A stretch of DNA of 64,000 bases from Escherichia phage BF17. The first letter of the stretch is position 1; every line of letters begins with the position of its first letter. The stretch lies in the sequence record MW822008.1; one strand, given 5' to 3'. Shown piece after piece: positions 46,714-64,000 of the stretch. Below the pieces are notes generated by a model. That model did not search any database. It saw only the letters and a list, made by a program, of their open reading frames with translations, and had not been told where the DNA came from. Position numbers and translations under genes: made by a program.

Positions 46714-49700
46714 TTATTTAACTTCTAATAGATTTTTAATGTCATTACCACTTATTTGCAAACTATCGGAGTAAACAGATAGTTCGATTGGATAACTGTT
46801 AACACTATAACGTTTTAGTAAATTAACTTTACCTAAGTTCAAGCCATTAAATGAATATGTCACATTCTCTTTAAAGTCGTGTTCTGCACTATACATTACC
46901 CCACGGAGTAAGTTATTTGCAAAACGTACTTCAACTTTTTCAAAACCAAGAGAAATAATATCATTCATACTTGCACCAGCACCAGATAGAACATTATTAG
47001 TAACACTATATGGACTAACTGAATCTGGTTGTGAAACATAAGTAGCATTTTCTTCACTGATAGCAGTAATGTTAGTTACTGTTCCACCAACTACACCAAT
47101 ATATGTATCACTAACTAGTGGATATGCATATTCCCATACCCCGTCAGCATTCAGTACTGGTTGAATAATACCAACATCATACTCGAACACGTTAATTTCC
47201 ACACTATCAGTCATTTTGGTTCTCACTAACTCACTAAGAACACCTGCACCAGTAATTGGTAAGTTATATCCGTTATCAATGGTAACACCATCAACTTCAA
47301 ATATCTCGTTAGACACTACCCAAACATCAACGTCATCTGGTGTAATTCCATCATTATAAGAACCACCGTATAGTGTTGTGTCGTAGAATACTTCATAGTT
47401 CATTGCGTCGATAGCATAATTTCTATTTGTTTCATACAACTTAACACCATCAACCAAGAATTCTGGATCAGCAAAGGTTCTAATACGAACGATGTTCAAT
47501 GCTAGAGGTATTGCTGGTTCATTCTGTTGTTGTTTAGTGATGTTATCATAACGAAGCACAACTCCAGTACTATCTAGTAGTTCTACAGTTCCGTTCGCAG
47601 TGTTTCTTACTGTGTACAAGGTTGGTGTGGTGTCAGTTTTGATTTTTGATACACTCAAGATGGTTTCCCATGCATTGTTTTGGTATCTCACATAATCTTC
47701 ACCATCAGTTGTGAATATCATAACCTTATCACCATCAGATAGGGTATTGTCAATTACTTCAGCTTCTGTATCACTAACAATTGATTTAATTTTATAGAAG
47801 TATTTTTCATCATACTTACTGTATGATTTACTAATATCATTTTCAATCTTAGCGTAAGAAGGAATACTAACAATTGCTTCTGTTGTTTTATAAGGGTTGA
47901 TAATAACCATACCTTCAGTTTTATATCTACTATTGTCTCTCAATTGAACTAGTGAAACACTATTGAATCCATAACCATCAACTGTGAAGCGAATCTGACC
48001 AATCTTTCTTCCTGATGGGTTAATATCAGAAATGTCGATTATGTACGGATCTACTTCGTCACCTTCAACTTCCCATTTTAACTCGGAAGTTTGTGATTCA
48101 AGTGCTAGGTTATCAAATGCATTCATATCATCGTAGTACTTAGCATCGGTGATGCTATCTAGGATGTGCTGATAATCACTGTACATTGGGTTATTTCTAT
48201 CAAGAGGTAAGTCATCAAGATTTATTTCTGCCAATTGAACTAGTTGACCGTCAGTTATGAATTTGTCTTCCATGAAATCATCAATGCTTTGGTCATCTGG
48301 GATACTCTCGTATACACCATTAACATTAACATAAACATATTTTCGTGGCATCATAGTAAATGCATGAATATCAATAGGCATTCTACTTAGTATTTCTTCA
48401 GCCTTTTCATAATGGTCGGTAGCATCTTTGTCATACAAACCACGCATACCGGACAATACATGAATTGCGTCATTGTAGAATCGTTGATTTCCATTTTCAT
48501 CTACATGGCGATATGAATAAACACCATATTCAACTTCAAGTATAATTCTAACTTCATCATCAGTTGCAGTAGTATTGTTTTCTTTAATTAAAGAAACATA
48601 CTTATTATACAACTCACTACTAACTTCAAAGTAACCAAAGTTATAATCAGTACTGGATGCATAACCAAACGGTAGTCTGGTACTTGGATTATCATCATAG
48701 GTTAACCCACTAAATCCACATCCAACCTCATCATGAATTACTTCATCATCTGCACCTGTGTACAATTTCAAACGGTTAGAGAGTGTGTTATACTGAACAT
48801 AATGATTTACGTCATTAAACATTTCATTTTGTGTTGATTCTTTATATACACGATTCAACGTTTCTGTGAATTCTGCGGTTGCTACCAAATCATCTGCATG
48901 GTCTGCATACCATTGGTTAACACCGTAAGCAATCCCTAGAGTTACGTTCAATTCTGGGTAATACAATTGCATCTGATAAGCAACCAATAGGTCGAAATCT
49001 TCATCACTGTATTCTGGGAATGTATATTTGTAACGTTGTAATTCAAAATTACTAACAACATCTTGTGCATTAGATTGATATTTCTTATTCACTTCTTCCA
49101 ATACATCAACACTTGCCAAATTATCATTTGGTTTACATTGAGTGTTGTCGTAGTGCATGATAACATCAATTTCTTGGAAACGGCGATTAGGTGTTACGAA
49201 ATCACTTGGCAATTCACCAACTTGCTCCCAACGTTGAGTTACCTCATTGAATTGAGCATATTCATAATCCCAAATGTCTTTTTCCGTTTTAACCCAAGTC
49301 CCATCTGCAAATATATAGCCATTAGGATCTAAATCATTACACAAACCTTTAATTAAATCATCATCTGAAGTTTTCTGTTCAATCTGGGAACGAATCTTAG
49401 TTCTATATGGTTTAACTTCTTCAAAGTACTCAACGATTTGATTAATCAAGTTGTCGTTGGAATAGTTCTGTACTAATGATTGTTCTAAACCTACAATATA
49501 AATGTAAGATGTTTTGAATACCCAATCAACAACGCTTTGTTCTACGTGAACATACTTAACCATATCAAACACAATTTCACTCTGATGTAAGTCGAATGAG
49601 TTCTTCAATAAAGCTAGTGCTTTACGAACGTTAATCTCACGATTACTCAACGAACCATTAGCATCACGAACTGTATAGTCAGCGTATAACATATCATTCA

Positions 49701-52700
49701 ATTCAACTGTACTATTTTCACGACCAATTGCTTTCCAGTAAACTGAATCACGTGATTGTGCTTTAATGTACAATGTCCAGATGCCATCAACATCTGTAAT
49801 TCTGATAATGTCACCAACTTGATAGTTCTTAGTGTTTGCATCTTCTAGGCTGGATTCTTGTGTATATGCAGTATTTTTATCGTATCCAATATCATACCAA
49901 TCTGCTAGTGACCAGTACTGGGTCATGTCCAATGAAGTTCCTAGTGCTTCAACATAGTCTGATTGTTTAATCATTTTCTGTTGACCTTCACCACGGTTTT
50001 CCAATGTAATGGTAACCACACTACCAGCACTTGATGGACTATTCATTAGATGAATATAACCATTAGCATCAATATGCACAAAATATACAGAGCTAGTTGA
50101 TAGTGGGGTAGGTAATACACCACTAGTACTTACTAGTACTGCGTCGTTTTCTTTGAACTTGTCACTTTCAGGTGCAATGACTAATTCACTATTGTAAGTT
50201 AGCACACGATATGATACTTCATTCGGGTTAACTTCAGTAGTTTTAACATTAAACACTTCGTCCATTAGAACAGTGTTAGTTGTTATATTCTGTGAGCGAT
50301 AATAGTTATTTGCACTTTCTACAAAGTTTCTACGAGCTTCAATTACATCTTGGAACCAAGTCTTATTAGAACCTAAACCGTTTGGTACTAAAGGATATAG
50401 TAAATCAATAACAGTTCCTGATTCAGTAGTTTCTTGACCAATCATAGAATTCCACATAGAAGTCCAGATTGATGGATTGAAGTTATAGCTATCACCTTCT
50501 TTACATAATTGATACTGGTCATGTTTAATAACTTCAGTATTATCCATGTAATAAGAAACAGTTAAAATACTTGTGTCATCGTTGACTTCAAATTGCATAT
50601 TACTTAGAATGAACGAGCTTTCATTGATTGGTGCAAACCAAGGAATGTTAAGCTGTGCTGGTTCTTTAATAATACGAGCAATATCAGTACAAGATTTAGT
50701 TCTGGAATGTAATGGTGGTACATAAATTGTATCACGAACCCAGAAATAGTATTTTGTAACATAAGTATCAGTTGTGCTATCATATTCTAAGAACGTACTA
50801 TAATTATCTTCCAATGCGGTTCCGCTTGGTAGGTACATAGTGTTGTTTTTATTTTTGTTAGCAACGTCTTTACAGTATTTGTCCCAGTTATATGGTTCAA
50901 CTGGTGAACATACCCATTCAAGAACATCAACAGTACTGTGCGGTAACAATCTACCCCAGTTATAACGTTTATATTCATTTGTTGCATCAACATCCACATT
51001 ACCGTCAGCATCATAGATTGCACGAGTGTAATCTAAGTAGAAAGCAGTGCTGGTGTTCCACCAAACCTGACCAACTTTATCAGCACCCCATGCTTGAATC
51101 AATTCACCATTGCTGTTGTATTGTGCTGGGTCAACTGGAGATGTGTAGGTAACGTTCTGCATCGCTGCACCAGGAATAACACCGTTGATTGGGTCAAACA
51201 CGTTTAGGTACAACGCAGTAATGTTAGTACGTTCATCATATGTAGTTGGACGGTCAAACAAAGTACTTTGTGGAGCTTTAAAACTATATTTTCTGTCAAT
51301 GTATTCCTGACGCATCTCTTCAGTACTGAATCGTGAAACATAACGATACAAGCGTGGGCGAGTATCAGGATCAGTGAAGTCAATAGTGATTGAAGTGTCA
51401 AACGGAACTACCATAACTCTAGGGTCATTACCCGCAGTATAATATTGACTTTCTATAGTCAATGTATCTGGCATAAAGTTAGTTTCATCAACAAAGTAAT
51501 AATAATCACCATCATTTAGTGGGATATCATCACTTAGAGTTACTTTACAGAATTGTTCTGCATATACATCGGTATTTTCAATTGGAACGATAGAGAGCAT
51601 CTCAACTTCAGTGTCTACTAGTTCGAAAATATTCCACAAATCATTACCATCTTTAAACATCCATACAGAATCTGGGATTTCACCACTGTTATTCATATAA
51701 TTGATACGATCATTATATGCAGTACTGAAATCTTTAGTAACGTATGAAATTTCATCTAGTGTTACAGGACCAATGTCTGGAAGTTGGATATTCTCACTTC
51801 TTCCACTACGCATTGGGAATGAAAACTTACCATTTGGACGAGTAATCCAGCGTGAGTCAACCCCTTGTTCACCGTAATAAACAATACCATTACCAGTACC
51901 ATTTGATGTAGCATTAACATCAAACGAAACCATCTGTGGTTGTTGTTTAAATTGGTCATTGATTAGTTTAAATTGTAGATTTTTCTTACCATTGATATTA
52001 CCATAAGTACCAATCTTAAATGCCCATTCCTGAAGTGCTTTATATTCATCAGTGTCGTAAGATTTAGAAACGCGTAGTACTTTTTCCATTACTTGGTTAG
52101 TACCTTTGTCATGAATGAATCCTTTATAGAAATCAACACGACTAACATCACTACTAATCATACGTTGTAGATAATCACGAGTTTGATAGCCAATCAAGTG
52201 ATTTGATAACTCTTGAAGCTGAACATCACTCACAGGAGTTTCACTATTATAATATAATTCAAAATCAGTTACTAATTTTTCAAATGATGGTAAAGTTCCT
52301 GCTTCTAGGATAATGAAACCAGGTGCTTGTAGGCGACCAGTCCATGACCCAGTAATGTAACCATACATTTTAATCAATTCTTGAATAGCACCATAAGTTG
52401 GTTGGTAAATGTAATCACCAAAGATAGTTTTATCATCAAAAACAACTGCGTGTTCATATGAACTTAGGCTCAAACGAATCAACGCCATACGTTTTTGTGA
52501 TTCAGATGTAGTTCTCACTGTGAATACGTTACCGATACGCGAAGTTTCGATTTCATATTGACGGATGCCTTGGTTTTCATCATCGAGTAGTGACCAAACA
52601 CCACCACTATTCTGTGTAACAGATTGAACTGAACCAAAATCCGCACCAAATTTAGCATTAGCTGCACTTGGAGTACAGGAGATGAACTCACCAGTACTTA

Positions 52701-55700
52701 AATTATTCTGACTCCAAATAACAAAGTCTTTAGCAATAGTTGTCCAGTCTTGTTGAGTACCACTATCATTTACATCTTCAAAAATCCAGCCATGTTCTTT
52801 TAGATATTCACCATATCCACAAATGAAAGTATAAACTTCTTGGTATGTATTGAATATTTTACCATATTCTAATGTACCTTCAGATTTCCATTCATTGTAA
52901 TGAACAACAGTTCTGTCTTCCAATTTAAGAGTTACTTTTCTTCCATTTTTAACTGGAATTTTATATTTAAATTTAGCACCAACTAAATCATAACCATCAA
53001 TTTGATATGCACTACCATTCCAAGTAATTTTTACTGCACTCATTTGCTCATCGCGAATGTTATTGGAACGAACTAGACCGATAGTTTGGTTTTCTTGTGA
53101 AATCAAACCGAAAGATTTAGCAGTGAATGTCAATTGGTCTGCTTTAGTAAAGCCACCAATTTTGTGAGCGACATTGACATAAGAAGAACGAACAACGTCA
53201 CCGTATTTGGTGGTAATGTTCTTATTCTGATACATCAAATAGTCACTAACAAACATTTGATAACCGATAGTACGGGTGTTTTTCTCACCATGTACTAATG
53301 TAGTACTGTCAAAGTTTAGACGCTTACGGGTTTCACCATAAAGGAACTGTGAACCATCAGTATAAACTGGTTTAAGGTTATCATTACGGGTATCCCAGTA
53401 ATAGTTTGCAAACTGTGCTGGTTTTGCTTTGTATAGAAGAAGCATTTGGTCATAAGCAAACATCGCAGTGTTCATGTAAGTGAATTCCATGTCACCCATG
53501 TCACCATAAGACCACGGTTCTGCACGATGATCTAAATTACCACTAACAAGACCTAAAACTTCAGGTGCAATATACTCAACTTCACAAATATCAATACCAG
53601 TACTGGTTTTCTCGCCAGTCTTAGTGATTTTAAATGGCTGTACACCGAAACGCTTGTATTTGTCATATTGACCACGGCGTTCACCTGACAAAATAGTACC
53701 AGTACTGCTATCACCGATAGTACCATCAATATCCCACAATCCACTTGGGACCAAATCACCATTTTCATTCATTACTAGTGCTTCATACACATAAACAACA
53801 TCACCCTCACGTTCACCAACTTGAACTGCGGTTGGTTCGTATTCTTGGTTCCACCAAGTAGGACGTTGAGAGAAGCCCATCATTTCCCACGGATGGGTTG
53901 CTGGACGATATGTGCCATATTGGTCAGTATAGATTGCACGCCATGAACCACGAGCAGGAATTTCAGTACGTTGACCATCAACAACATAATAACTACCAGT
54001 ATAGTTCCAAGTTCTCCAGTTATTTGCATCATAATCATGAGTACTGTTACTAATGCCATTGGTTGCTGTGAAGTTAATGTAACCACGTAGTAATAGAGTT
54101 TTCTTTTCTTCTGCACTATAATCAGTACCAGTGAAATATGGAGTTGGGAATAGGTCTTCACTGTTTAGTACTGGTTTATAATCAATATCCTTGAAAGTAA
54201 GATCAATACTATTAAAGATACGATTTTCCAATTCAAAAACTACGTCATCCATTTTATCAACACCATTGATAACACGGTATGCTTTTGAAATAATACCAGT
54301 ATGACTGATATTATAACAGCTAGATTTACTACCAGCAGTTAAGAATGTTGCTTTTTGTGGTGTATAAGCTTGCAAAATACCCAAGAACTGTGGAGTTGGT
54401 GGGACAAATGCACGAATAAACCCAGCAGTGCTTGCAACGTTGTCATAGTAGAATGGGAATGTACTATCACGTCCCATATTAATAGCTGTTAGAATCGCAT
54501 CTACGATGTTTGATGCACTATTACCAAGAAAAGCACTTGGGTCTTCTTCATACAAACGAAGCATTTGAGTGTTGAACTTGTTAATGAAGCGGAAGTATTC
54601 TGCTTGCATAAACATGATTGATTCAAACAAATCAATATCTTCATTAGCGGTATGTGCCATTAGTGGTAACATGGACGCTTCGTTTTGAATAATTTTAGTG
54701 CCTACACCATTATTAACCAAACCAGCAGCCAAACGTTCTTCGTAATTGTTAAAGTCATCAGCAGAACCAGATGTAATATTCTTTTGAATAATATCTTGGA
54801 AGTGCAGGGTGTAATCACCTTGGTTGATGTATTCAATGTTTGAATTATATGGGTTATTTTGTAGATTAATTGGAACTTCATATGCACCCAACTCTTTATT
54901 AGGAGTGATAGTGCTACTATAAGTTCTGATTTGTACAACAGAATCTTCATCCAAATCAACAGAGCTATCAATTGTAATACTTTGTACTTGATTATTAACT
55001 ACAGTTTTTGTGTATTCTTTTATTTCCACACCATCAACAACTAGTTCGATAATATCATCAGAATTATCTAGTACTTTTTGTGCCAATTCAAATGTATGAT
55101 TGTACTTAACGCTTTGTACCCCATCACCAACGATAACATGCCAATCAAGATATGTTTCACGTTCTGCTTTGTAATATTGATAAGTTCTGTCAACTTCAAT
55201 TACATAAGCATACATTCCTTCAACTGGGTCTTTGAAACTTTCCATGTCATAAACAGTACTGAACACGCGGAACATTACTGTACGTTCAACCTGTGGAGTT
55301 TGTTTAACATATTGTTTGGAGTATTCAGTACTACGAACCCAATCAGTTTCTAGGTTCATTGTATTACCTTCACCAATTACGTTATAGTAATATAGTCCAT
55401 CAATTTCAACTTCCACACCCAAATGCTCGTAAGTATAACGAGTTGATTGTAGGAAATTCTCATATGTGTAATAATTGTAATCACCTAGTTCAATATTATA
55501 ACCATAAACGCTATCAGTTGCATAATTATAGTTAATTTTAAAACCAAATAGTGAAGAACCAGTAAAAGTACTTGATGGATAGGTAGTAGTGTTGTTTAGT
55601 TTAACACCATTACGGTCATACAATTGGAATTGTGGAAATACGTTCACAGAAGTTTTAGACTGTGCTTGAATCCAATGAGAACCGTCCCAATACATGGAAC

Positions 55701-56715
55701 TGTTACCAAATTCATTACCTTTGATAATAAGAACTACGTCACCATCTTGTGGTTCACCACTCGGACGGCTTTCAGATTCTTCGTCTGGATCTAATGCTAG
55801 ACCATACACACGTGTTCCATCTTGCATACGTTTAACATATACTTTATAAATTCGGTTGTTTTCACCATTGTTACCAATACTGGTGAAAAGAATACGCATA
55901 CCATCTTGTGGAATAATACCATCAATACGTATACCGCTGTTAATATCTTTTTGTACGATATCTTCAGGTTTAATAATATCAGAGAACAAATCAACTGTCC
56001 CACGGAATTTAGTACCGTAGTTCATTAGTTCGATATTTTTATTGTATTCGATAATTGGTGCACGAGCACGAACAAAACGGGAATCTTGCATTAGTTCTTC
56101 AGTTAGGATAGTACCATCTTCTAAAGTTTCACCTAATGTGTACCAGAAGTTTTGTAGTGACCAAGTGTTACCATTTTCTGCACCACGTTCCATTACAATA
56201 TAATCTGGAGTTGTGATATTATAGCTATTCTTGGAATCCCATAGGTATGAACTGTAGTTGTTCATTTTATTTGGGTTAATTGGTGGGGTCCATGAATAGA
56301 ACTTACCATTAAACAAACGGCTTTCATTTTCGGTTAGTGCACCGTAATGATTCATATAGCCAACTAGATCATCATAAAATTGAATTGAACGAATGCTGGA
56401 GTCATCATTTCTTGAGACATACGCAGTGGACAACTGATATAGTTGACGTGCGACTGTTGACTCGTGTAAGAAGATGTTCCCTGCTGCTGCCGGAGAACCC
56501 ATGTCACCAATGTAGCCGTCAACTAATTCGTTTTCAGCCGGATTAAACCATTGTTGGATAACATCATCACTGACTTTCTGAATATCTTCTAAGCCTTGCA
56601 TCCACTCAGGCAATCTTTTTATGAAAAGCTTCTTCTGTACTGCTTCAGCCATCTGTGTAGGTTGAAACTTAAAATTATTAGTCATTTTTGGACTCCATAT
56701 AATTCGTTCATTCAT
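46714..56715 (-). CDS. giant virion protein (3333 aa), putative baseplate or fibre-associated
   Basis: Single uninterrupted 10-kb ORF downstream of gp6-like gene; alternative start at 56685 (MTNNF) has GGAG RBS. Confidence 0.65.
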   Translation of the reverse strand: MNERIIWSPKMTNNFKFQPTQMAEAVQKKLFIKRLPEWMQGLEDIQKVSDDVIQQWFNPAENELVDGYIGDMGSPAAAGNIFLHESTVARQLYQLSTAYVSRNDDSSIRSIQFYDDLVGYMNHYGALTENESRLFNGKFYSWTPPINPNKMNNYSSYLWDSKNSYNITTPDYIVMERGAENGNTWSLQNFWYTLGETLEDGTILTEELMQDSRFVRARAPIIEYNKNIELMNYGTKFRGTVDLFSDIIKPEDIVQKDINSGIRIDGIIPQDGMRILFTSIGNNGENNRIYKVYVKRMQDGTRVYGLALDPDEESESRPSGEPQDGDVVLIIKGNEFGNSSMYWDGSHWIQAQSKTSVNVFPQFQLYDRNGVKLNNTTTYPSSTFTGSSLFGFKINYNYATDSVYGYNIELGDYNYYTYENFLQSTRYTYEHLGVEVEIDGLYYYNVIGEGNTMNLETDWVRSTEYSKQYVKQTPQVERTVMFRVFSTVYDMESFKDPVEGMYAYVIEVDRTYQYYKAERETYLDWHVIVGDGVQSVKYNHTFELAQKVLDNSDDIIELVVDGVEIKEYTKTVVNNQVQSITIDSSVDLDEDSVVQIRTYSSTITPNKELGAYEVPINLQNNPYNSNIEYINQGDYTLHFQDIIQKNITSGSADDFNNYEERLAAGLVNNGVGTKIIQNEASMLPLMAHTANEDIDLFESIMFMQAEYFRFINKFNTQMLRLYEEDPSAFLGNSASNIVDAILTAINMGRDSTFPFYYDNVASTAGFIRAFVPPTPQFLGILQAYTPQKATFLTAGSKSSCYNISHTGIISKAYRVINGVDKMDDVVFELENRIFNSIDLTFKDIDYKPVLNSEDLFPTPYFTGTDYSAEEKKTLLLRGYINFTATNGISNSTHDYDANNWRTWNYTGSYYVVDGQRTEIPARGSWRAIYTDQYGTYRPATHPWEMMGFSQRPTWWNQEYEPTAVQVGEREGDVVYVYEALVMNENGDLVPSGLWDIDGTIGDSSTGTILSGERRGQYDKYKRFGVQPFKITKTGEKTSTGIDICEVEYIAPEVLGLVSGNLDHRAEPWSYGDMGDMEFTYMNTAMFAYDQMLLLYKAKPAQFANYYWDTRNDNLKPVYTDGSQFLYGETRKRLNFDSTTLVHGEKNTRTIGYQMFVSDYLMYQNKNITTKYGDVVRSSYVNVAHKIGGFTKADQLTFTAKSFGLISQENQTIGLVRSNNIRDEQMSAVKITWNGSAYQIDGYDLVGAKFKYKIPVKNGRKVTLKLEDRTVVHYNEWKSEGTLEYGKIFNTYQEVYTFICGYGEYLKEHGWIFEDVNDSGTQQDWTTIAKDFVIWSQNNLSTGEFISCTPSAANAKFGADFGSVQSVTQNSGGVWSLLDDENQGIRQYEIETSRIGNVFTVRTTSESQKRMALIRLSLSSYEHAVVFDDKTIFGDYIYQPTYGAIQELIKMYGYITGSWTGRLQAPGFIILEAGTLPSFEKLVTDFELYYNSETPVSDVQLQELSNHLIGYQTRDYLQRMISSDVSRVDFYKGFIHDKGTNQVMEKVLRVSKSYDTDEYKALQEWAFKIGTYGNINGKKNLQFKLINDQFKQQPQMVSFDVNATSNGTGNGIVYYGEQGVDSRWITRPNGKFSFPMRSGRSENIQLPDIGPVTLDEISYVTKDFSTAYNDRINYMNNSGEIPDSVWMFKDGNDLWNIFELVDTEVEMLSIVPIENTDVYAEQFCKVTLSDDIPLNDGDYYYFVDETNFMPDTLTIESQYYTAGNDPRVMVVPFDTSITIDFTDPDTRPRLYRYVSRFSTEEMRQEYIDRKYSFKAPQSTLFDRPTTYDERTNITALYLNVFDPINGVIPGAAMQNVTYTSPVDPAQYNSNGELIQAWGADKVGQVWWNTSTAFYLDYTRAIYDADGNVDVDATNEYKRYNWGRLLPHSTVDVLEWVCSPVEPYNWDKYCKDVANKNKNNTMYLPSGTALEDNYSTFLEYDSTTDTYVTKYYFWVRDTIYVPPLHSRTKSCTDIARIIKEPAQLNIPWFAPINESSFILSNMQFEVNDDTSILTVSYYMDNTEVIKHDQYQLCKEGDSYNFNPSIWTSMWNSMIGQETTESGTVIDLLYPLVPNGLGSNKTWFQDVIEARRNFVESANNYYRSQNITTNTVLMDEVFNVKTTEVNPNEVSYRVLTYNSELVIAPESDKFKENDAVLVSTSGVLPTPLSTSSVYFVHIDANGYIHLMNSPSSAGSVVTITLENRGEGQQKMIKQSDYVEALGTSLDMTQYWSLADWYDIGYDKNTAYTQESSLEDANTKNYQVGDIIRITDVDGIWTLYIKAQSRDSVYWKAIGRENSTVELNDMLYADYTVRDANGSLSNREINVRKALALLKNSFDLHQSEIVFDMVKYVHVEQSVVDWVFKTSYIYIVGLEQSLVQNYSNDNLINQIVEYFEEVKPYRTKIRSQIEQKTSDDDLIKGLCNDLDPNGYIFADGTWVKTEKDIWDYEYAQFNEVTQRWEQVGELPSDFVTPNRRFQEIDVIMHYDNTQCKPNDNLASVDVLEEVNKKYQSNAQDVVSNFELQRYKYTFPEYSDEDFDLLVAYQMQLYYPELNVTLGIAYGVNQWYADHADDLVATAEFTETLNRVYKESTQNEMFNDVNHYVQYNTLSNRLKLYTGADDEVIHDEVGCGFSGLTYDDNPSTRLPFGYASSTDYNFGYFEVSSELYNKYVSLIKENNTTATDDEVRIILEVEYGVYSYRHVDENGNQRFYNDAIHVLSGMRGLYDKDATDHYEKAEEILSRMPIDIHAFTMMPRKYVYVNVNGVYESIPDDQSIDDFMEDKFITDGQLVQLAEINLDDLPLDRNNPMYSDYQHILDSITDAKYYDDMNAFDNLALESQTSELKWEVEGDEVDPYIIDISDINPSGRKIGQIRFTVDGYGFNSVSLVQLRDNSRYKTEGMVIINPYKTTEAIVSIPSYAKIENDISKSYSKYDEKYFYKIKSIVSDTEAEVIDNTLSDGDKVMIFTTDGEDYVRYQNNAWETILSVSKIKTDTTPTLYTVRNTANGTVELLDSTGVVLRYDNITKQQQNEPAIPLALNIVRIRTFADPEFLVDGVKLYETNRNYAIDAMNYEVFYDTTLYGGSYNDGITPDDVDVWVVSNEIFEVDGVTIDNGYNLPITGAGVLSELVRTKMTDSVEINVFEYDVGIIQPVLNADGVWEYAYPLVSDTYIGVVGGTVTNITAISEENATYVSQPDSVSPYSVTNNVLSGAGASMNDIISLGFEKVEVRFANNLLRGVMYSAEHDFKENVTYSFNGLNLGKVNLLKRYSVNSYPIELSVYSDSLQISGNDIKNLLEVK

Positions 56716-56733
56716 TTGATTTATTTATGATAT

Positions 56734-56757
56734 AAAAAAGACGTTCCGAAGAACGCC
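56734..56757 (-). terminator. intrinsic terminator with UUCG tetraloop
   Basis: Minus-strand RNA GGCGTTC-UUCG-GAACGTC followed by U6, in the 50-bp gap between gp6-like and giant genes. Confidence 0.65.
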
Positions 56758-56765
56758 TTAATGTG

Positions 56766-60292: not shown

Positions 60293-60323
60293 CCAAAAAG
60301 AAAAGCACCCCGAAGAGTGCTTT
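60293..60323 (-). terminator. hairpin terminator between gp25-like and gp6-like genes
   Basis: AAAGCAC-CCCGAAGA-GTGCTTT stem with T-runs on both strands. Confidence 0.5.
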
Positions 60324-60329
60324 TATAAT

Positions 60330-60725
60330 TTACAAAGATGATACAGAATAGGTAGCCATTCTGTTGTTACTTCTTGCATCAAAAACTATAGTTAATTCTT
60401 CAAGAGTATTGAGAACAACATATTCAAGTACTATATCCATCTGATAACCGTACTCAATTCTTGATATTTGAAGTTTCTTTAAGCTTAAACGTGGGTCCAA
60501 GCTAATAATTCTACGGGCATCTGCTTCCAAAAGGTTGATTGTATTATAACCATCCAATTCAAATAGCAAATCCCACGCAATGAACCCATAATCAGCATCA
60601 AATGCACGTTCACCTTTTTTTGTATTGAAATGATTCATTAAATCCTGACGAACCAATTCACTGTCATACAATGTTTCAGTTCTTCCAACTACTGGAGTTG
60701 AAAAACCTTTAAAAACAATTGCCAT
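60330..60725 (-). CDS. baseplate wedge protein gp25-like
   Basis: TKKGERAFDADYGFIAWDLLFE matches T4 gp25 TRKGSRPFDPEFGCDLSDQLFE (recalled); 131 aa vs 132. Confidence 0.8.
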   Translation of the reverse strand: MAIVFKGFSTPVVGRTETLYDSELVRQDLMNHFNTKKGERAFDADYGFIAWDLLFELDGYNTINLLEADARRIISLDPRLSLKKLQISRIEYGYQMDIVLEYVVLNTLEELTIVFDARSNNRMATYSVSSL

Positions 60726-60740
60726 TATGTGTTTCCTTTA

Positions 60741-61229
60741 TTATACGGATTCGACGATGCGAGCCATCTTCTCCGCTCTGGATGTGGTTTGTTTGTACCA
60801 CGAACTATCACGCATTTCTTTACCAGCAGTTTTATAATCCCCACGACCGAGAGCAGCCATCGCTTTTTTGAAATTTAAAACTTTTGATTTACCCATTTGG
60901 AACACCATAAACCACAATACACGCTGAACCTGTACTGGAGCAGTCATTCCAAATTGATCATAGATTGATTTTGCGTCATTGTAAGCGGTCTGAGCATCTT
61001 TTATAAGGAGAGCATCAGCTTCTGCTTCAGTGAGTCCATTTTTGAAACTTTCACCCTTAAGTACAAGGTGACCGTAACCAATGGTATCAAGACCTAGACT
61101 GTCTTTATATACCCAAAACTTATCATTTTTAAAATAACCAAGTTTTTTCTGATACGCAATAGTACCTTCAAATTCTTTAATTTCTTTAAAAAATTGTTCG
61201 TCGGTATTTTTGATTTCCCATTTACTCAT
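60741..61229 (-). CDS. endolysin, T4-lysozyme family (GH24)
   Basis: EFEG...YKDSLGLDTIGYGH with Glu/Asp/Thr at T4L positions E11/D20/T26; MVFQMGKSKV and SSWYKQTTSRAEKMA motifs. Confidence 0.85.
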   Translation of the reverse strand: MSKWEIKNTDEQFFKEIKEFEGTIAYQKKLGYFKNDKFWVYKDSLGLDTIGYGHLVLKGESFKNGLTEAEADALLIKDAQTAYNDAKSIYDQFGMTAPVQVQRVLWFMVFQMGKSKVLNFKKAMAALGRGDYKTAGKEMRDSSWYKQTTSRAEKMARIVESV

Positions 61230-61266
61230 AAAGATTTCCTCATTATTATTTATAGTACTGAAATAT

Positions 61267-63930
61267 TTATTGACATGCCTCTAATCTACGTGCCATTAAT
61301 TCAGCACGGCGTGTAGTTTGACGATACCAAGCTGAATTTCGAATTTGAGCAGCAGCTTGCTTGTAGTTACCTTTAGCCATTTCAGATAGCATTGACTTAA
61401 ATTTCATTACACCACCTTTACCCATCTGGAATACCATTTGACATAGAACTTGTTGTGCCATGTAAGGTGTTTTCATCTTATAAGAAGCGTAAATGGATTT
61501 TGCGTCATATATAGCCTTACTACTATCACGCACCAACATATCATTGGCTTCCTGTTCGGTAATCCCACCAGAGAAGTTTTCACCACCAACAATCAAGTGA
61601 CCGTAACCAATAGTTGGGAATCCACGACTATCCAAATATCTCCAAAATTTACCATTGCGGTAATATCCTTTAGCTTGTTGATACGCCATTGTTCCTTCAT
61701 ATTCTTTCAATTCAGAAATAAATTGTGAATCACCCGGAACAACTTTCCAATCAATTGCAGTCTTATCAACATTACCCACATTGTATGATTCTTGTGCAGT
61801 AGGTGCTGGAGTACCCCCTGAACGTTGTGTTCTTCTACGACGAGGGACATGACGAGAACCACGTTGAGAATACCCAGTACCGATAGTTTTAATTTTAGTT
61901 GTTACAACTAATTCATCACTATCAACAGAAGGTTGAACAACAGCTTTCGGTGCTGCTTGGTTCGTTGCTTGTCCTGCAATTAATGTTTTATTTCCCGCTT
62001 CAGAACCTGTACCAGTCTGGGATGCATAGAATAATCCAGGGTCAACTGAACCACTAAATCCTAGTACGTTGGCAGAGGTAACTCTTATTTCAAATTGAAT
62101 AACACCATTAGCTTTACCGATAACTTGACCTTTTTGAACAACGTCTTTATTGAGCAAATCTGATTGAATATTATAAAATACAGATTTATATCCAGACTTA
62201 TGTTGAACCAATAAAGCACCATTAGTGATAACAACTACACCGCCATCTGGAGCTACAACATCACCCTTGCACTGTATTTCCCAGCCACTTCTATCAGCTT
62301 TACCACCACCACTTGTCGGGACACCTTTCCCCCAATAACCGTATTGGCGAATGGTTCCACTACACGGCATGAACATATGAAGACCTTCATACGTAATGCT
62401 ATAACCAGTCATACCAGGATCAGAAGTCATTAAATCTTGTGTTTGAACTTGTTCTGTTTCTGTTGTATAATTTACATATTGAATTGCTTCAGTGTCCTGT
62501 ACTGGAGCTAAAGTTGGAGCTACATCATTAGCAGGTTCAGGTTGAACTGGGGATTCACTATTCCCACTACCACCACCTTGACGTGGAGGTTCAACAGTAC
62601 TGCCGTGATTCTCAGCATCAACCCAAGCCGATATATCATGTATATGATCATTCAAGCCAGCAGATGGGGTGCGGAAGTTTGGTGCATTAAATTCAGCAGT
62701 ACCACTATTACCACCACTGTTAACAGTAAGAGTTTGACCACCACCACTAATAATAGCTGATGAAGAACCAATAAGATTAGCACTGGTAGCAGCAGAGATT
62801 GACGCATTAGAACCAGCAGTTATATCAGTACTGCTACCACTTTGCATACGTAATGAAGCTGCTGTTACTAAACGTAAATCTGCTCCAGCGTTAATAACAA
62901 CCTGACCACCAACTTTAGCATCCAATGCACCAACCAAATCTAGTTTAGTGTTTGCACCAACACGAGCATTGAAGTCTGCTCCACTTTCAATATTATATGA
63001 GCGTCCAGCAACCATGTTAATATCTTGACCTGCACGAATGTTAATATTCTTATCACAGTGCATTTCAATATCACCTTCACCAGTGAATTTAATACGTGCA
63101 GTACCATCACGGTTAATTAAAAGAACATCACCAGAGGCTTCAGATAACAACAACTGTGCACCACTACGTGTTTTAATTACAACGCCTTCATTTTTACGAG
63201 AACCAACACGAGTATCGTTCACTGGGTTATTGAATTGGGTATCCTGATAACCATCTGGATCTTGATCCCATGTAGGTGCTGTTAATTCTTCTTCTGTGTA
63301 ACCATCATCAATAATAAAACTGTTACCACGAGGTGAGGAAAGACCATAAACAGTACTGGTGGTCTGGCGAGTACTGCTACGGTTAGCAACACCCGCTTCC
63401 TCATCATAAAGTAAGTTTTGTTTTTTCAGACCTGCAATAATTGGAACGTTTGCATATTTGTCTTGAGTACTGGTAGAAATTGTATTACGGTCATAATCAG
63501 TTACGGGTAATGGCATATCAGTACCAGCATAGTTGCTTATTTCAGTAGCCATCCCAGGAACCATCGTATTCATACGTTGGTCATAAACACAACCAATCCA
63601 ATACGCTTGGAATGTTCTTGCTTGTGCAAATATAACAACAACAGTACATCCGACATCAGGTGGAACCGCCCAAAAACCATATCCCTTTGGATATTGACCA
63701 TAAGCATCAGCACTTGGTATCCCTGGAGTTTTGCCAGCGAATGGAGACATGTATGATGCTTCAATCCATGACTCTTTTGAATTTTTATCACTTTGTGAAC
63801 CTTGAATCCACACTTTTAGCTTACCGGATTTAGTTGGGTCACGGTTATCCATCACGGTTGCTAGTTGTGGGTACGAAGGGTCAAAACGACCCAACTGTTG
63901 TTGGGCATATTTCTTACTTGTATCTGCCAT
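61267..63930 (-). CDS. baseplate central spike with C-terminal lysozyme domain and degenerate M23-like domain
   Basis: N-terminal OB-type region (KLKVWIQG...WIEASYMSPFAG...YWIGCVY), central beta-helical repeats, M23-like block lacking conserved His, C-terminal GH24 domain (EYEG...YLDSRGFPTIGYGH). Confidence 0.7.
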   Translation of the reverse strand: MADTSKKYAQQQLGRFDPSYPQLATVMDNRDPTKSGKLKVWIQGSQSDKNSKESWIEASYMSPFAGKTPGIPSADAYGQYPKGYGFWAVPPDVGCTVVVIFAQARTFQAYWIGCVYDQRMNTMVPGMATEISNYAGTDMPLPVTDYDRNTISTSTQDKYANVPIIAGLKKQNLLYDEEAGVANRSSTRQTTSTVYGLSSPRGNSFIIDDGYTEEELTAPTWDQDPDGYQDTQFNNPVNDTRVGSRKNEGVVIKTRSGAQLLLSEASGDVLLINRDGTARIKFTGEGDIEMHCDKNINIRAGQDINMVAGRSYNIESGADFNARVGANTKLDLVGALDAKVGGQVVINAGADLRLVTAASLRMQSGSSTDITAGSNASISAATSANLIGSSSAIISGGGQTLTVNSGGNSGTAEFNAPNFRTPSAGLNDHIHDISAWVDAENHGSTVEPPRQGGGSGNSESPVQPEPANDVAPTLAPVQDTEAIQYVNYTTETEQVQTQDLMTSDPGMTGYSITYEGLHMFMPCSGTIRQYGYWGKGVPTSGGGKADRSGWEIQCKGDVVAPDGGVVVITNGALLVQHKSGYKSVFYNIQSDLLNKDVVQKGQVIGKANGVIQFEIRVTSANVLGFSGSVDPGLFYASQTGTGSEAGNKTLIAGQATNQAAPKAVVQPSVDSDELVVTTKIKTIGTGYSQRGSRHVPRRRRTQRSGGTPAPTAQESYNVGNVDKTAIDWKVVPGDSQFISELKEYEGTMAYQQAKGYYRNGKFWRYLDSRGFPTIGYGHLIVGGENFSGGITEQEANDMLVRDSSKAIYDAKSIYASYKMKTPYMAQQVLCQMVFQMGKGGVMKFKSMLSEMAKGNYKQAAAQIRNSAWYRQTTRRAELMARRLEACQ

Positions 63931-64000
63931 CTTAAATTATTCCTTATTCAATTATACTATCGTGACGTTTGAGTGCACGAATTACAATTGCAGCCTGAAT

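Follow-up and report, generated by a model that had tools for sequence, protein, structure and literature searches.

The window analysed here, a 64,000 nucleotide (nt) stretch of Escherichia phage BF17 (MW822008.1), contains what is best read as the locus for the central spike of the baseplate in a jumbo myovirus of the RaK2/PBECO4 type. The central tail spike or tail-associated lysozyme, an 887 amino acid (aa) protein (61267..63930, minus strand), combines an OB-fold domain, a VgrG/gp5-type beta-helix, an HxH motif, a degenerate LytM domain and a C-terminal GH24 lysozyme domain, in that order. Its gene is followed by one for a small, predicted soluble GH24 lysozyme of 162 aa (60741..61229, minus strand; Pfam Phage_lysozyme 37.3 bits), a paralogue of the spike's C-terminal domain. 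We put the probability of this explanation as a whole, comprising the spike, its dead LytM domain and the small lysozyme, at roughly 80 %. Both open reading frames (ORFs) lie at the positions given in a first reading of the sequence by a model (hereafter the original prediction), whose observation was confirmed and whose interpretation was partly supported.

Identity of the locus and conservation of the spike

By megablast, the interval 60300-64000 matched 35 phage records, each over at least 80 % of the length, and the matches listed were all 320-386-kb jumbo myoviruses of E. coli or Salmonella. Identity was 99.4-99.7 % with EC.P1, vB_Ec-M-J, Ecwhy_1 and fEgEco12, and 84 % with PBECO4, phAPEC6 and slurp01 (genus Asteriusvirus). 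At the protein level, the spike was 100 % identical to that of Ecwhy_1 and 92.8 % identical to its PBECO4/121Q counterparts. RaK2 gp078, CBB_240, phAPEC6 gp241 and PBECO4 gp534 are orthologues of the spike, and RaK2 ORF073, CBB_239 and LysUE1 are orthologues of the small lysozyme, with identities of 57-100 %. The annotation of this neighbourhood in fEgEco12 is that of a baseplate operon, not of a type VI secretion system (T6SS) cluster, with the transcription order gp48-like, gp53-like, 751-aa virion protein, spike, small lysozyme, gp25-like, 1153-aa wedge protein and ~3300-aa virion protein.

The whole spike architecture was kept in 86 protein clusters (869-984 aa, with identities as low as 34 %) and in 72 independently sequenced phage records, and the 870-985-aa reading frame was uninterrupted in both sets. 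The hosts of these were Escherichia, Klebsiella, Salmonella, Erwinia, Yersinia, Serratia, Cronobacter, Pectobacterium and Xanthomonas, together with one Vibrio phage. Orthologues of the spike have been detected in virions by mass spectrometry (MS), namely phAPEC6 gp241 with 7 peptides (PMC7247149) and CBB_240 with 3 peptides (PMC5259590).

Domain architecture of the spike

The original prediction had read the spike as an N-terminal OB-type domain, a beta-helical region, an M23/LytM-like block and a C-terminal GH24 lysozyme, an order that was borne out by Pfam, profile and model evidence. With the three Pfam profiles that it had proposed as a check, the spike scored 29.8 bits for Phage_base_V, 18.1 bits for Peptidase_M23, which is below the cut-off, and 41.6 bits for Phage_lysozyme. 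Searches of the PDB with the full-length spike or its profile were flooded by T4 lysozyme mutants, so sub-alignments were used.

The OB-fold domain was located at residues 23-116 (63583..63864, minus strand), where the Phage_base_V cut-off is 23.8 bits, and the beta-helix region at approximately residues 249-410 (62701..63186, minus strand), with a match to the VgrG-type beta-helix DUF2345 of 30.9 bits (cut-off 30.7) over residues 278-329. In the monomer model the helix consists of short strands at regular spacing, with a predicted local distance difference test score (pLDDT) of 80-89. A profile built on spike residues 1-470 together with 26 shorter homologues matched the VgrG structures 9jg8 (E 3.8e-9) and 8gra over both the OB part and the beta-helix, and the N-terminal half was therefore assigned as a gp5/VgrG-type needle. 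Because the match spans only VgrG residues ~366-613, the spike is without the gp27-like half.

In the alignments, the last helix repeats are followed immediately by an HxH motif, H429-I-H431, in the context GLNDHIHDI (62638..62646, minus strand). Both histidines are invariant, in 51 of 51 full-length relatives and 86 of 86 clusters. A histidine cage with an iron ion has been described as the sole universally conserved mark of spike apex domains, usable for their recognition (Leiman and colleagues, bioRxiv 10.1101/2023.02.25.529910). The motif in this spike is a candidate for the metal-binding histidine cage of an apex, although it sits mid-chain, with ~455 residues following to the C-terminus.

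The first part of this extension is a Pro/Gln/Glu-rich linker at approximately residues 440-518 (62377..62613, minus strand), with low or mixed pLDDT and a length that varies across the family, by up to +90 aa in the member P0077. It leads into a degenerate LytM (M23-fold) domain at approximately residues 519-650 (61981..62376, minus strand). The Pfam Peptidase_M23 match falls on residues 550-607 and is under the 28.7-bit cut-off. When residues 500-700 of 27 family members were combined into a profile, it matched the solved structures of LasA (1.4e-6), SpoIIQ (3.5e-6) and DipM (2e-4), and also zoocin A and EnvC. An AlphaFold2 model of residues 500-700 reached a core pLDDT above 90, and its top 45 Foldseek matches in the PDB were all M23/LytM domains, with DipM best (E 3.9e-6), followed by PrgK, Csd1/Csd2, EnvC, LytM and lysostaphin. 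In a viral structure library the same model matched many phage M23 modules, including that of the baseplate hub protein of jumbo phage ME3. The block does, in other words, model as a LytM fold.

The original prediction had also noted that this block lacks the HxxxD and HxH histidines of M23 enzymes, and comparison with an intact homologue agreed. The homologue, P0118, is a metagenomic spike protein of 619 aa (locus L016:5001-6860) with a complete C-terminal M23 domain (97.7 bits; HPGVD, GHM and HCH motifs). When the family profile was aligned to it with hhalign (88 % probability, E 3e-6), its HxxxD residues corresponded to R547 and E551 of the spike, its catalytic His to N587 and its HxH to V610 and Q612. 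Across 86 family members the catalytic columns were occupied by R/H/Q/N, I/E/T/V, D/G/N, V/I/T and E/Q/T/N, with no conserved His or Asp. The only conserved His in the domain is H577, and the P0118 His aligned with it lies outside HxxxD, the mid-domain His and HxH. This alignment supersedes an hmmsearch of the LytM profile against an approximate lysostaphin sequence, in which only 24 residues aligned. Judged from these alignments, the M23 module is predicted to be catalytically dead throughout the family.

The C-terminal GH24 (T4-type) lysozyme domain spans residues 724-887 (61270..61761, minus strand), with the Phage_lysozyme match at residues 765-882. In the PDB it matched the T4 gp5 lysozyme domain and T4 lysozyme at E 1e-11 with the single sequence and 2e-21 with the profile. 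It was modelled with a pLDDT of 84-92 and keeps the catalytic Glu/Asp/Thr of T4 lysozyme as E745, D767 and T773. The spike lysozyme of the Xanthomonas phage XaC1 has a deletion after the catalytic Glu. Between the LytM and lysozyme domains, the family alignment contains a conserved segment, ELVV..K..(S/T)IGSGYSQRGSRHVPRRRR (residues 675-700; 61831..61908, minus strand), in which V675 and G691 are invariant and I683, S692 and P696 are at least 90 % conserved. The segment has a basic run and low pLDDT, and is possibly an inter-subunit strand or a processing site, the processing role being conjecture.

Relationship of the small lysozyme to the spike

The 162-aa protein is a single GH24 domain, and its alignment with spike residues 728-886 is ungapped, with 50 % identity (E 7e-57). 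Its catalytic triad, E21/D43/T49, is invariant in 70 orthologues. The paralogy of the two lysozymes and the retention of Glu/Asp/Thr in both, as claimed in the original prediction, are therefore secure, and the sequence motifs that it quoted in support are seen in the alignment. Small lysozymes, spike domains and free relatives share one insertion that follows the catalytic Glu and one deletion with respect to T4 lysozyme; they form a single GH24 subfamily. RaK2-like genomes carry three GH24 genes in all (PMC3622015). The third paralogue, represented by phAPEC6 gp293c (308 aa; locus L003:7101-8027), combines a LysM domain and a GH24 domain with a membrane segment at the N-terminus, and is only 30-35 % identical to the spike domain and the small lysozyme; it was sought in the 64-kb window and is not present there.

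The small gene was found between spike and gp25 in XaC1, in two metagenomic relatives (42 and 49 % spike identity) and in RaK2. RaK2-type Klebsiella phages (locus L011:7342-8835) have four small ORFs between spike and lysozyme, two of them on the opposite strand, and the lysozyme-gp25 pair is intact. At the locus of three metagenomic relatives (38-44 % identity) and of Vibrio phage 2.275.O the small gene is absent and gp25 directly follows the spike. Such a distribution is consistent with acquisition within the family. The small lysozyme is not common to all versions of the module but was added upstream of gp25 in certain lineages only.

The original prediction had interpreted the pair as a locally preserved duplication between a virion-associated and a free lysin. 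In its full form, the 162-aa protein would be the main endolysin, born by local tandem duplication of the spike's 3' end and kept in place, a possibility that we consider real but doubtful. In its favour, no two GH24 sequences of the genome are more alike than the spike domain and the small lysozyme (50 % identity, compared with 30-35 % between either of them and the third copy), their genes lie side by side or close together in all 60+ enterobacterial relatives, and the small gene is missing in deep-branching relatives, as a later gain predicts. A three-group parsimony count gave informative columns of 2:0:1, the two columns FQM versus FQL and RAE versus RVE favouring a grouping of small lysozymes with shallow spikes. 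The shared FQM and RAE states are a hint that may link small lysozymes to the spikes of the same genomes.

Other comparisons speak against a duplication. A neighbour-joining (NJ) tree of 69 GH24 sequences with 100 bootstraps gave 49 % support for a core clade of small lysozymes and 17 % for a spike clade; small lysozymes were nested in the spike clade in only 5 of the 100 replicates, and no relevant grouping reached 50 %. The mean identity of the small lysozymes to spike domains (47 %) was barely above that to free 150-aa lysozymes of Serratia/Erwinia/Yersinia genomes (45 %) and below that to a T4-like group (49 %) which includes an endolysin encoded beside a T-type holin on a T4-like contig. 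No gene-conversion tract was found between the two window copies, which have a nucleotide identity of 56 % and a longest exact run of 15 nt. The lysozyme phylogeny, a check that the original prediction had suggested, did not decide whether the small lysozyme derives from the spike domain. In view of this, of the similar identity to free lysozymes and of the absence of the small gene in four deep-branching relatives, the claim of a locally preserved duplication was not established, and the sequences at hand do not settle the source of the small lysozyme. Among its closest free relatives outside jumbo phages is a 165-aa enzyme encoded directly downstream of the T-type holin on the T4-like contig (locus L007:6342-7498), with a T4-type spanin near; it shares an N-terminal W-x-I/V...D motif with the spike domain.

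Evidence on the endolysin role was likewise divided. The small lysozyme is 90 % identical to LysUE1 of phage UE-S1, an orthologue that has been cloned and purified and lyses E. coli in vitro with ethylenediaminetetraacetic acid (EDTA) permeabilization (PMC12805682). On the other side, the membrane-anchored LysM-GH24 protein is the literature's candidate, since the CBB authors named its CBB orthologue as the endolysin and found that expression of this protein was toxic (PMC5259590). The neighbours of the small lysozyme gene are baseplate genes, and the annotation shows neither a holin nor a spanin within 20 kb of it. The 162-aa protein as the endolysin is therefore doubtful, and the label of free endolysin given in the original prediction was not sustained. 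Most likely, it works beside the membrane-anchored LysM-GH24 endolysin, whose gene lies elsewhere in the genome, as an accessory or holin-dependent enzyme of lysis.

Proposed module exchange and mechanism of the spike

P0118 also shares with the spike locus the gene order gp53-like, ~750-aa protein, spike. Another relative of the spike, P0111, has a GH19-like module behind the helix, in the same place as the M23 domain. The finding of an M23 domain that is dead family-wide here and live in a homologous spike suggests that the lineage swaps or retires wall-degrading modules. The simplest reading is that the modules behind the beta-helix are interchangeable, with active M23, GH19-like, or dead M23 plus GH24 as the predicted states. 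Most probably, the dead LytM domain is the fossil of an M23 module that was active in an ancestral spike and has been retained as an adaptor for packing or for peptidoglycan binding.

In the mechanism that we propose, the 887-aa protein would serve the function of T4 gp5, with its domains rearranged and its architecture extended. By homology, the OB domain would dock the trimer under the tail tube in the baseplate hub, and the beta-helix, closed by the invariant HxH, would form a rigid piercing element. Each chain would run on via the long flexible linker into the dead LytM-fold domain and the intact, predicted GH24 muramidase. Upon sheath contraction, and by analogy with T4 gp5, the spike would cross the outer membrane and bring three muramidase domains to the peptidoglycan, where local cutting of glycan strands would allow passage of the tube. 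In the RaK2-like branch the M23 module would have lost its chemistry, and the GH24 module would do the cutting.

A more elaborate arrangement can be envisaged, in which HxH closes the helix tip as in P2 gpV, the chain turns back, and three LytM and GH24 arms are folded along the helix until release in the periplasm, with the dead LytM domain controlling or targeting the muramidase or recruiting host amidases. We regard such a mid-chain apex as speculative and unlikely. If true, its topology and the regulatory use of a degenerate LytM domain would be undescribed for any contractile-tail spike.

Instead of a fossil, the LytM-like domain could be a functional regulator of the EnvC/NlpD/DipM kind that binds and activates the spike's own GH24 domain or a periplasmic host amidase. 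The best structural matches do include the degenerate regulatory LytM domains of DipM and EnvC, and conservation is strong even though the catalytic site is gone, 11 residues being invariant among 51 sequences. However, the Foldseek E-values were nearly equal for active and degenerate LytM domains (4e-6 to 2e-4), and a structural role explains the conservation equally well. A regulatory function is in our view improbable, and a retired M23 module is preferred.

The small lysozyme and the virion

It is also conceivable, but quite improbable, that the 162-aa lysozyme (18.8 kDa) is a structural component of the baseplate or virion. Within the baseplate operon its gene always immediately precedes gp25, in RaK2 too, despite the four ORFs that lie between it and the spike there, and is co-terminated with gp25. 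Against this, its orthologues were not detected in the virion proteomes of phAPEC6 (PMC7247149) and CBB (PMC5259590), unlike the spike orthologues; it has no docking-capable domain besides GH24; and four related phages have the same baseplate module but lack it. The absence from the proteomes is weak evidence, because gp25, a baseplate component expected from homology to T4 gp25, was also undetected in phAPEC6. No hydrophobic segment was seen at the N-terminus of the small lysozyme, as read by eye only and not with a signal-peptide or transmembrane predictor. We infer that the protein is a soluble, active muramidase and a free enzyme rather than a stoichiometric part of the virion.

An assembly or annotation artefact, or a fusion of two genes, as the source of the long C-terminal part of the spike has nothing in its favour and is ruled out by the preservation of this architecture in the 86 protein clusters and 72 phage genomes.

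Besides the undetected gp25, several findings weigh against the overall explanation of a gp5-like virion spike with a dead LytM domain and an accompanying free muramidase. The RaK2 orthologue of the spike, gp078, was undetected by MS (PMC3622015). The full-length AlphaFold monomer has a pLDDT of 71.5 and a predicted template modelling score (pTM) of 0.41 and is silent on the placement of the C-terminal domains in the trimer, and the pLDDT around HxH is 46-66. The residue equivalent to Thr26 of T4 lysozyme is Asp in 19 of the 86 spike-family members, and one member, P0084, is without the catalytic Glu and Asp, so lysozyme activity is perhaps not essential everywhere; the spike lysozyme may be inactive in some lineages. 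The remaining points concern transcription of the small gene.

Possible transcription signals

A T4-late-promoter-like octamer, TATAAATA, lies 17 nt upstream of the start codon of the small lysozyme (61247..61254, minus strand; exact match), within the 37 nt that separate the spike gene from the small one. No second exact copy occurs in the window. Shuffles of the window contained a mean of 6.55 copies, and the single exact copy is thus not statistically remarkable; copies with one mismatch numbered 123, against 150 expected, and are depleted if anything. Conservation of the octamer extends to PBECO4 and to the sequence upstream of the RaK2 orthologue, but not to Erwinia phage pEa_SNUABM_44 or XaC1. 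These phages encode a gp55-like sigma factor. The small lysozyme possibly has its own late promoter in TATAAATA, which is treated as a lead only because the octamer is not enriched in the window. As a general late promoter in this phage TATAAATA was rejected, given the single exact copy and the depletion of one-mismatch copies. A scan for sigma-70 promoters gave results no different from shuffles.

A strong terminator-like hairpin follows gp25 (60301..60324, minus strand), with a 10-bp stem, a CTTCGG-type loop and a T-run, and another strong one with a CTTCGG-type loop follows the gene for the 1153-aa wedge protein (56738-56759, minus strand). As predicted from sequence, the first hairpin closes a spike/lysozyme/gp25 unit, and the two together split the baseplate genes into short transcription units. 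The small lysozyme gene is probably co-transcribed with gp25.

Comparison with known systems

The spike and lysozyme feature is already known, and every element of it is in print. The RaK2 paper (2013) reported three lysozymes per genome with domains 50-66 % similar, placed gp078 (886 aa) among the largest baseplate lysozymes and termed its domain composition very unusual, with the beta-helix before the C-terminal lysozyme (PMC3622015). The CBB paper (2017) described CBB_238 (gp25-like), CBB_239 (T4-type lysozyme) and CBB_240, and noted the difference from gp5 (PMC5259590). Between them, these papers contain the unusual order, the central M23 match, the adjoining T4-type lysozyme and the third lysozyme (PMC3622015, PMC5259590). 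The RaK2, CBB, phAPEC6 and PBECO4 spikes have the same length, domain order and gene neighbourhood as the spike in the window, with no substantive difference. What is not stated in the RaK2, CBB, phAPEC6, UE-S1 and fEgEco12 papers is the family-wide death of the M23 domain beside a homologue with a live one, the invariant mid-chain HxH and the patchy occurrence of the small gene. Little changes for the field, as the genes, their order, the M23 match and the multiple lysozymes were published in 2013 and 2017, and LysUE1, the orthologue of one of the two enzymes, has already been produced as an antibacterial. The additions may inform cryo-electron microscopy of baseplates of the RaK2 type or help in choosing lysin domains to engineer, and open no new question.

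In T4, too, the spike protein gp5 is accompanied by a free GH24 paralogue, lysozyme E, although the e gene does not adjoin gene 5, unlike the small lysozyme gene here. The trimeric virion spike gp5 shares with the present spike an OB domain, a GH24 domain with Glu/Asp/Thr and a beta-helix, which in gp5 is a triple one. As the original prediction had pointed out, the order differs, gp5 being arranged as OB, lysozyme and beta-helix, with the lysozyme mid-chain at residues 144-328 of 584 and no LytM domain (PDB 1k28). T4 gp5 is also without HxH and is capped by the PAAR protein gp5.4 (bioRxiv 10.1101/2023.02.25.529910). Spikes of the P2 gpV and phi92 gp138 type resemble the present one in that an OB domain and a beta-helix are followed immediately by a strictly conserved HxH. 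In P2 gpV, however, the motif is 12 residues from the C-terminus, whereas here the ~455 residues that follow include two globular domains, and metal binding is putative.

Evolved VgrG proteins of the T6SS, such as V. cholerae VgrG-3 with its C-terminal peptidoglycan hydrolase, provide a further parallel in having a wall hydrolase appended after the beta-helix, and the N-terminal half of the spike aligns with VgrG. They differ in their fused gp27-like N-terminal module and in belonging to a T6SS cluster rather than to a phage baseplate. The resemblance to VgrG drawn in the original prediction therefore holds for the enzyme domain after the beta-helix but, given the missing gp27-like half and the phage baseplate operon, as an analogy only.

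The LytM domain of the spike is comparable to those of EnvC, NlpD, DipM and SpoIIQ in having an M23 fold without the zinc ligands, although these are bacterial amidase regulators or channel parts. We know of no degenerate LytM domain of the regulator type inside a phage spike. Phage 812 offers a comparable example, as the CHAP-like clip domain of its weld protein is likewise a dead hydrolase fold retained in the baseplate (PMC13433997). P0118 has a homologous OB domain and beta-helix, the same upstream synteny and an M23 domain after a linker at the same place; it differs in that its M23 domain is catalytically complete, it has no GH24 domain and its post-helix motif is R.P.HEP...H, not HxH.

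Neighbouring genes

The gene downstream of the small lysozyme encodes a gp25-like baseplate wedge protein of 131 aa (60330..60725, minus strand; Pfam GPW_gp25 34.7 bits), an assignment supported by synteny across the loci examined. On the upstream side, a ~700-750-aa virion protein precedes the spike in all other loci except that of the deep-branching Vibrio phage 2.275.O (locus L012), where the spike is directly after the gp53-like gene. Downstream of the wedge gene lies an ORF of 3333 aa (46714-56715, minus strand), and an ORF of 3321-3508 aa occupies the same place in all relatives examined. The orthologue of its product in phAPEC6, gp245 (382 kDa), has been identified as a virion protein by MS.

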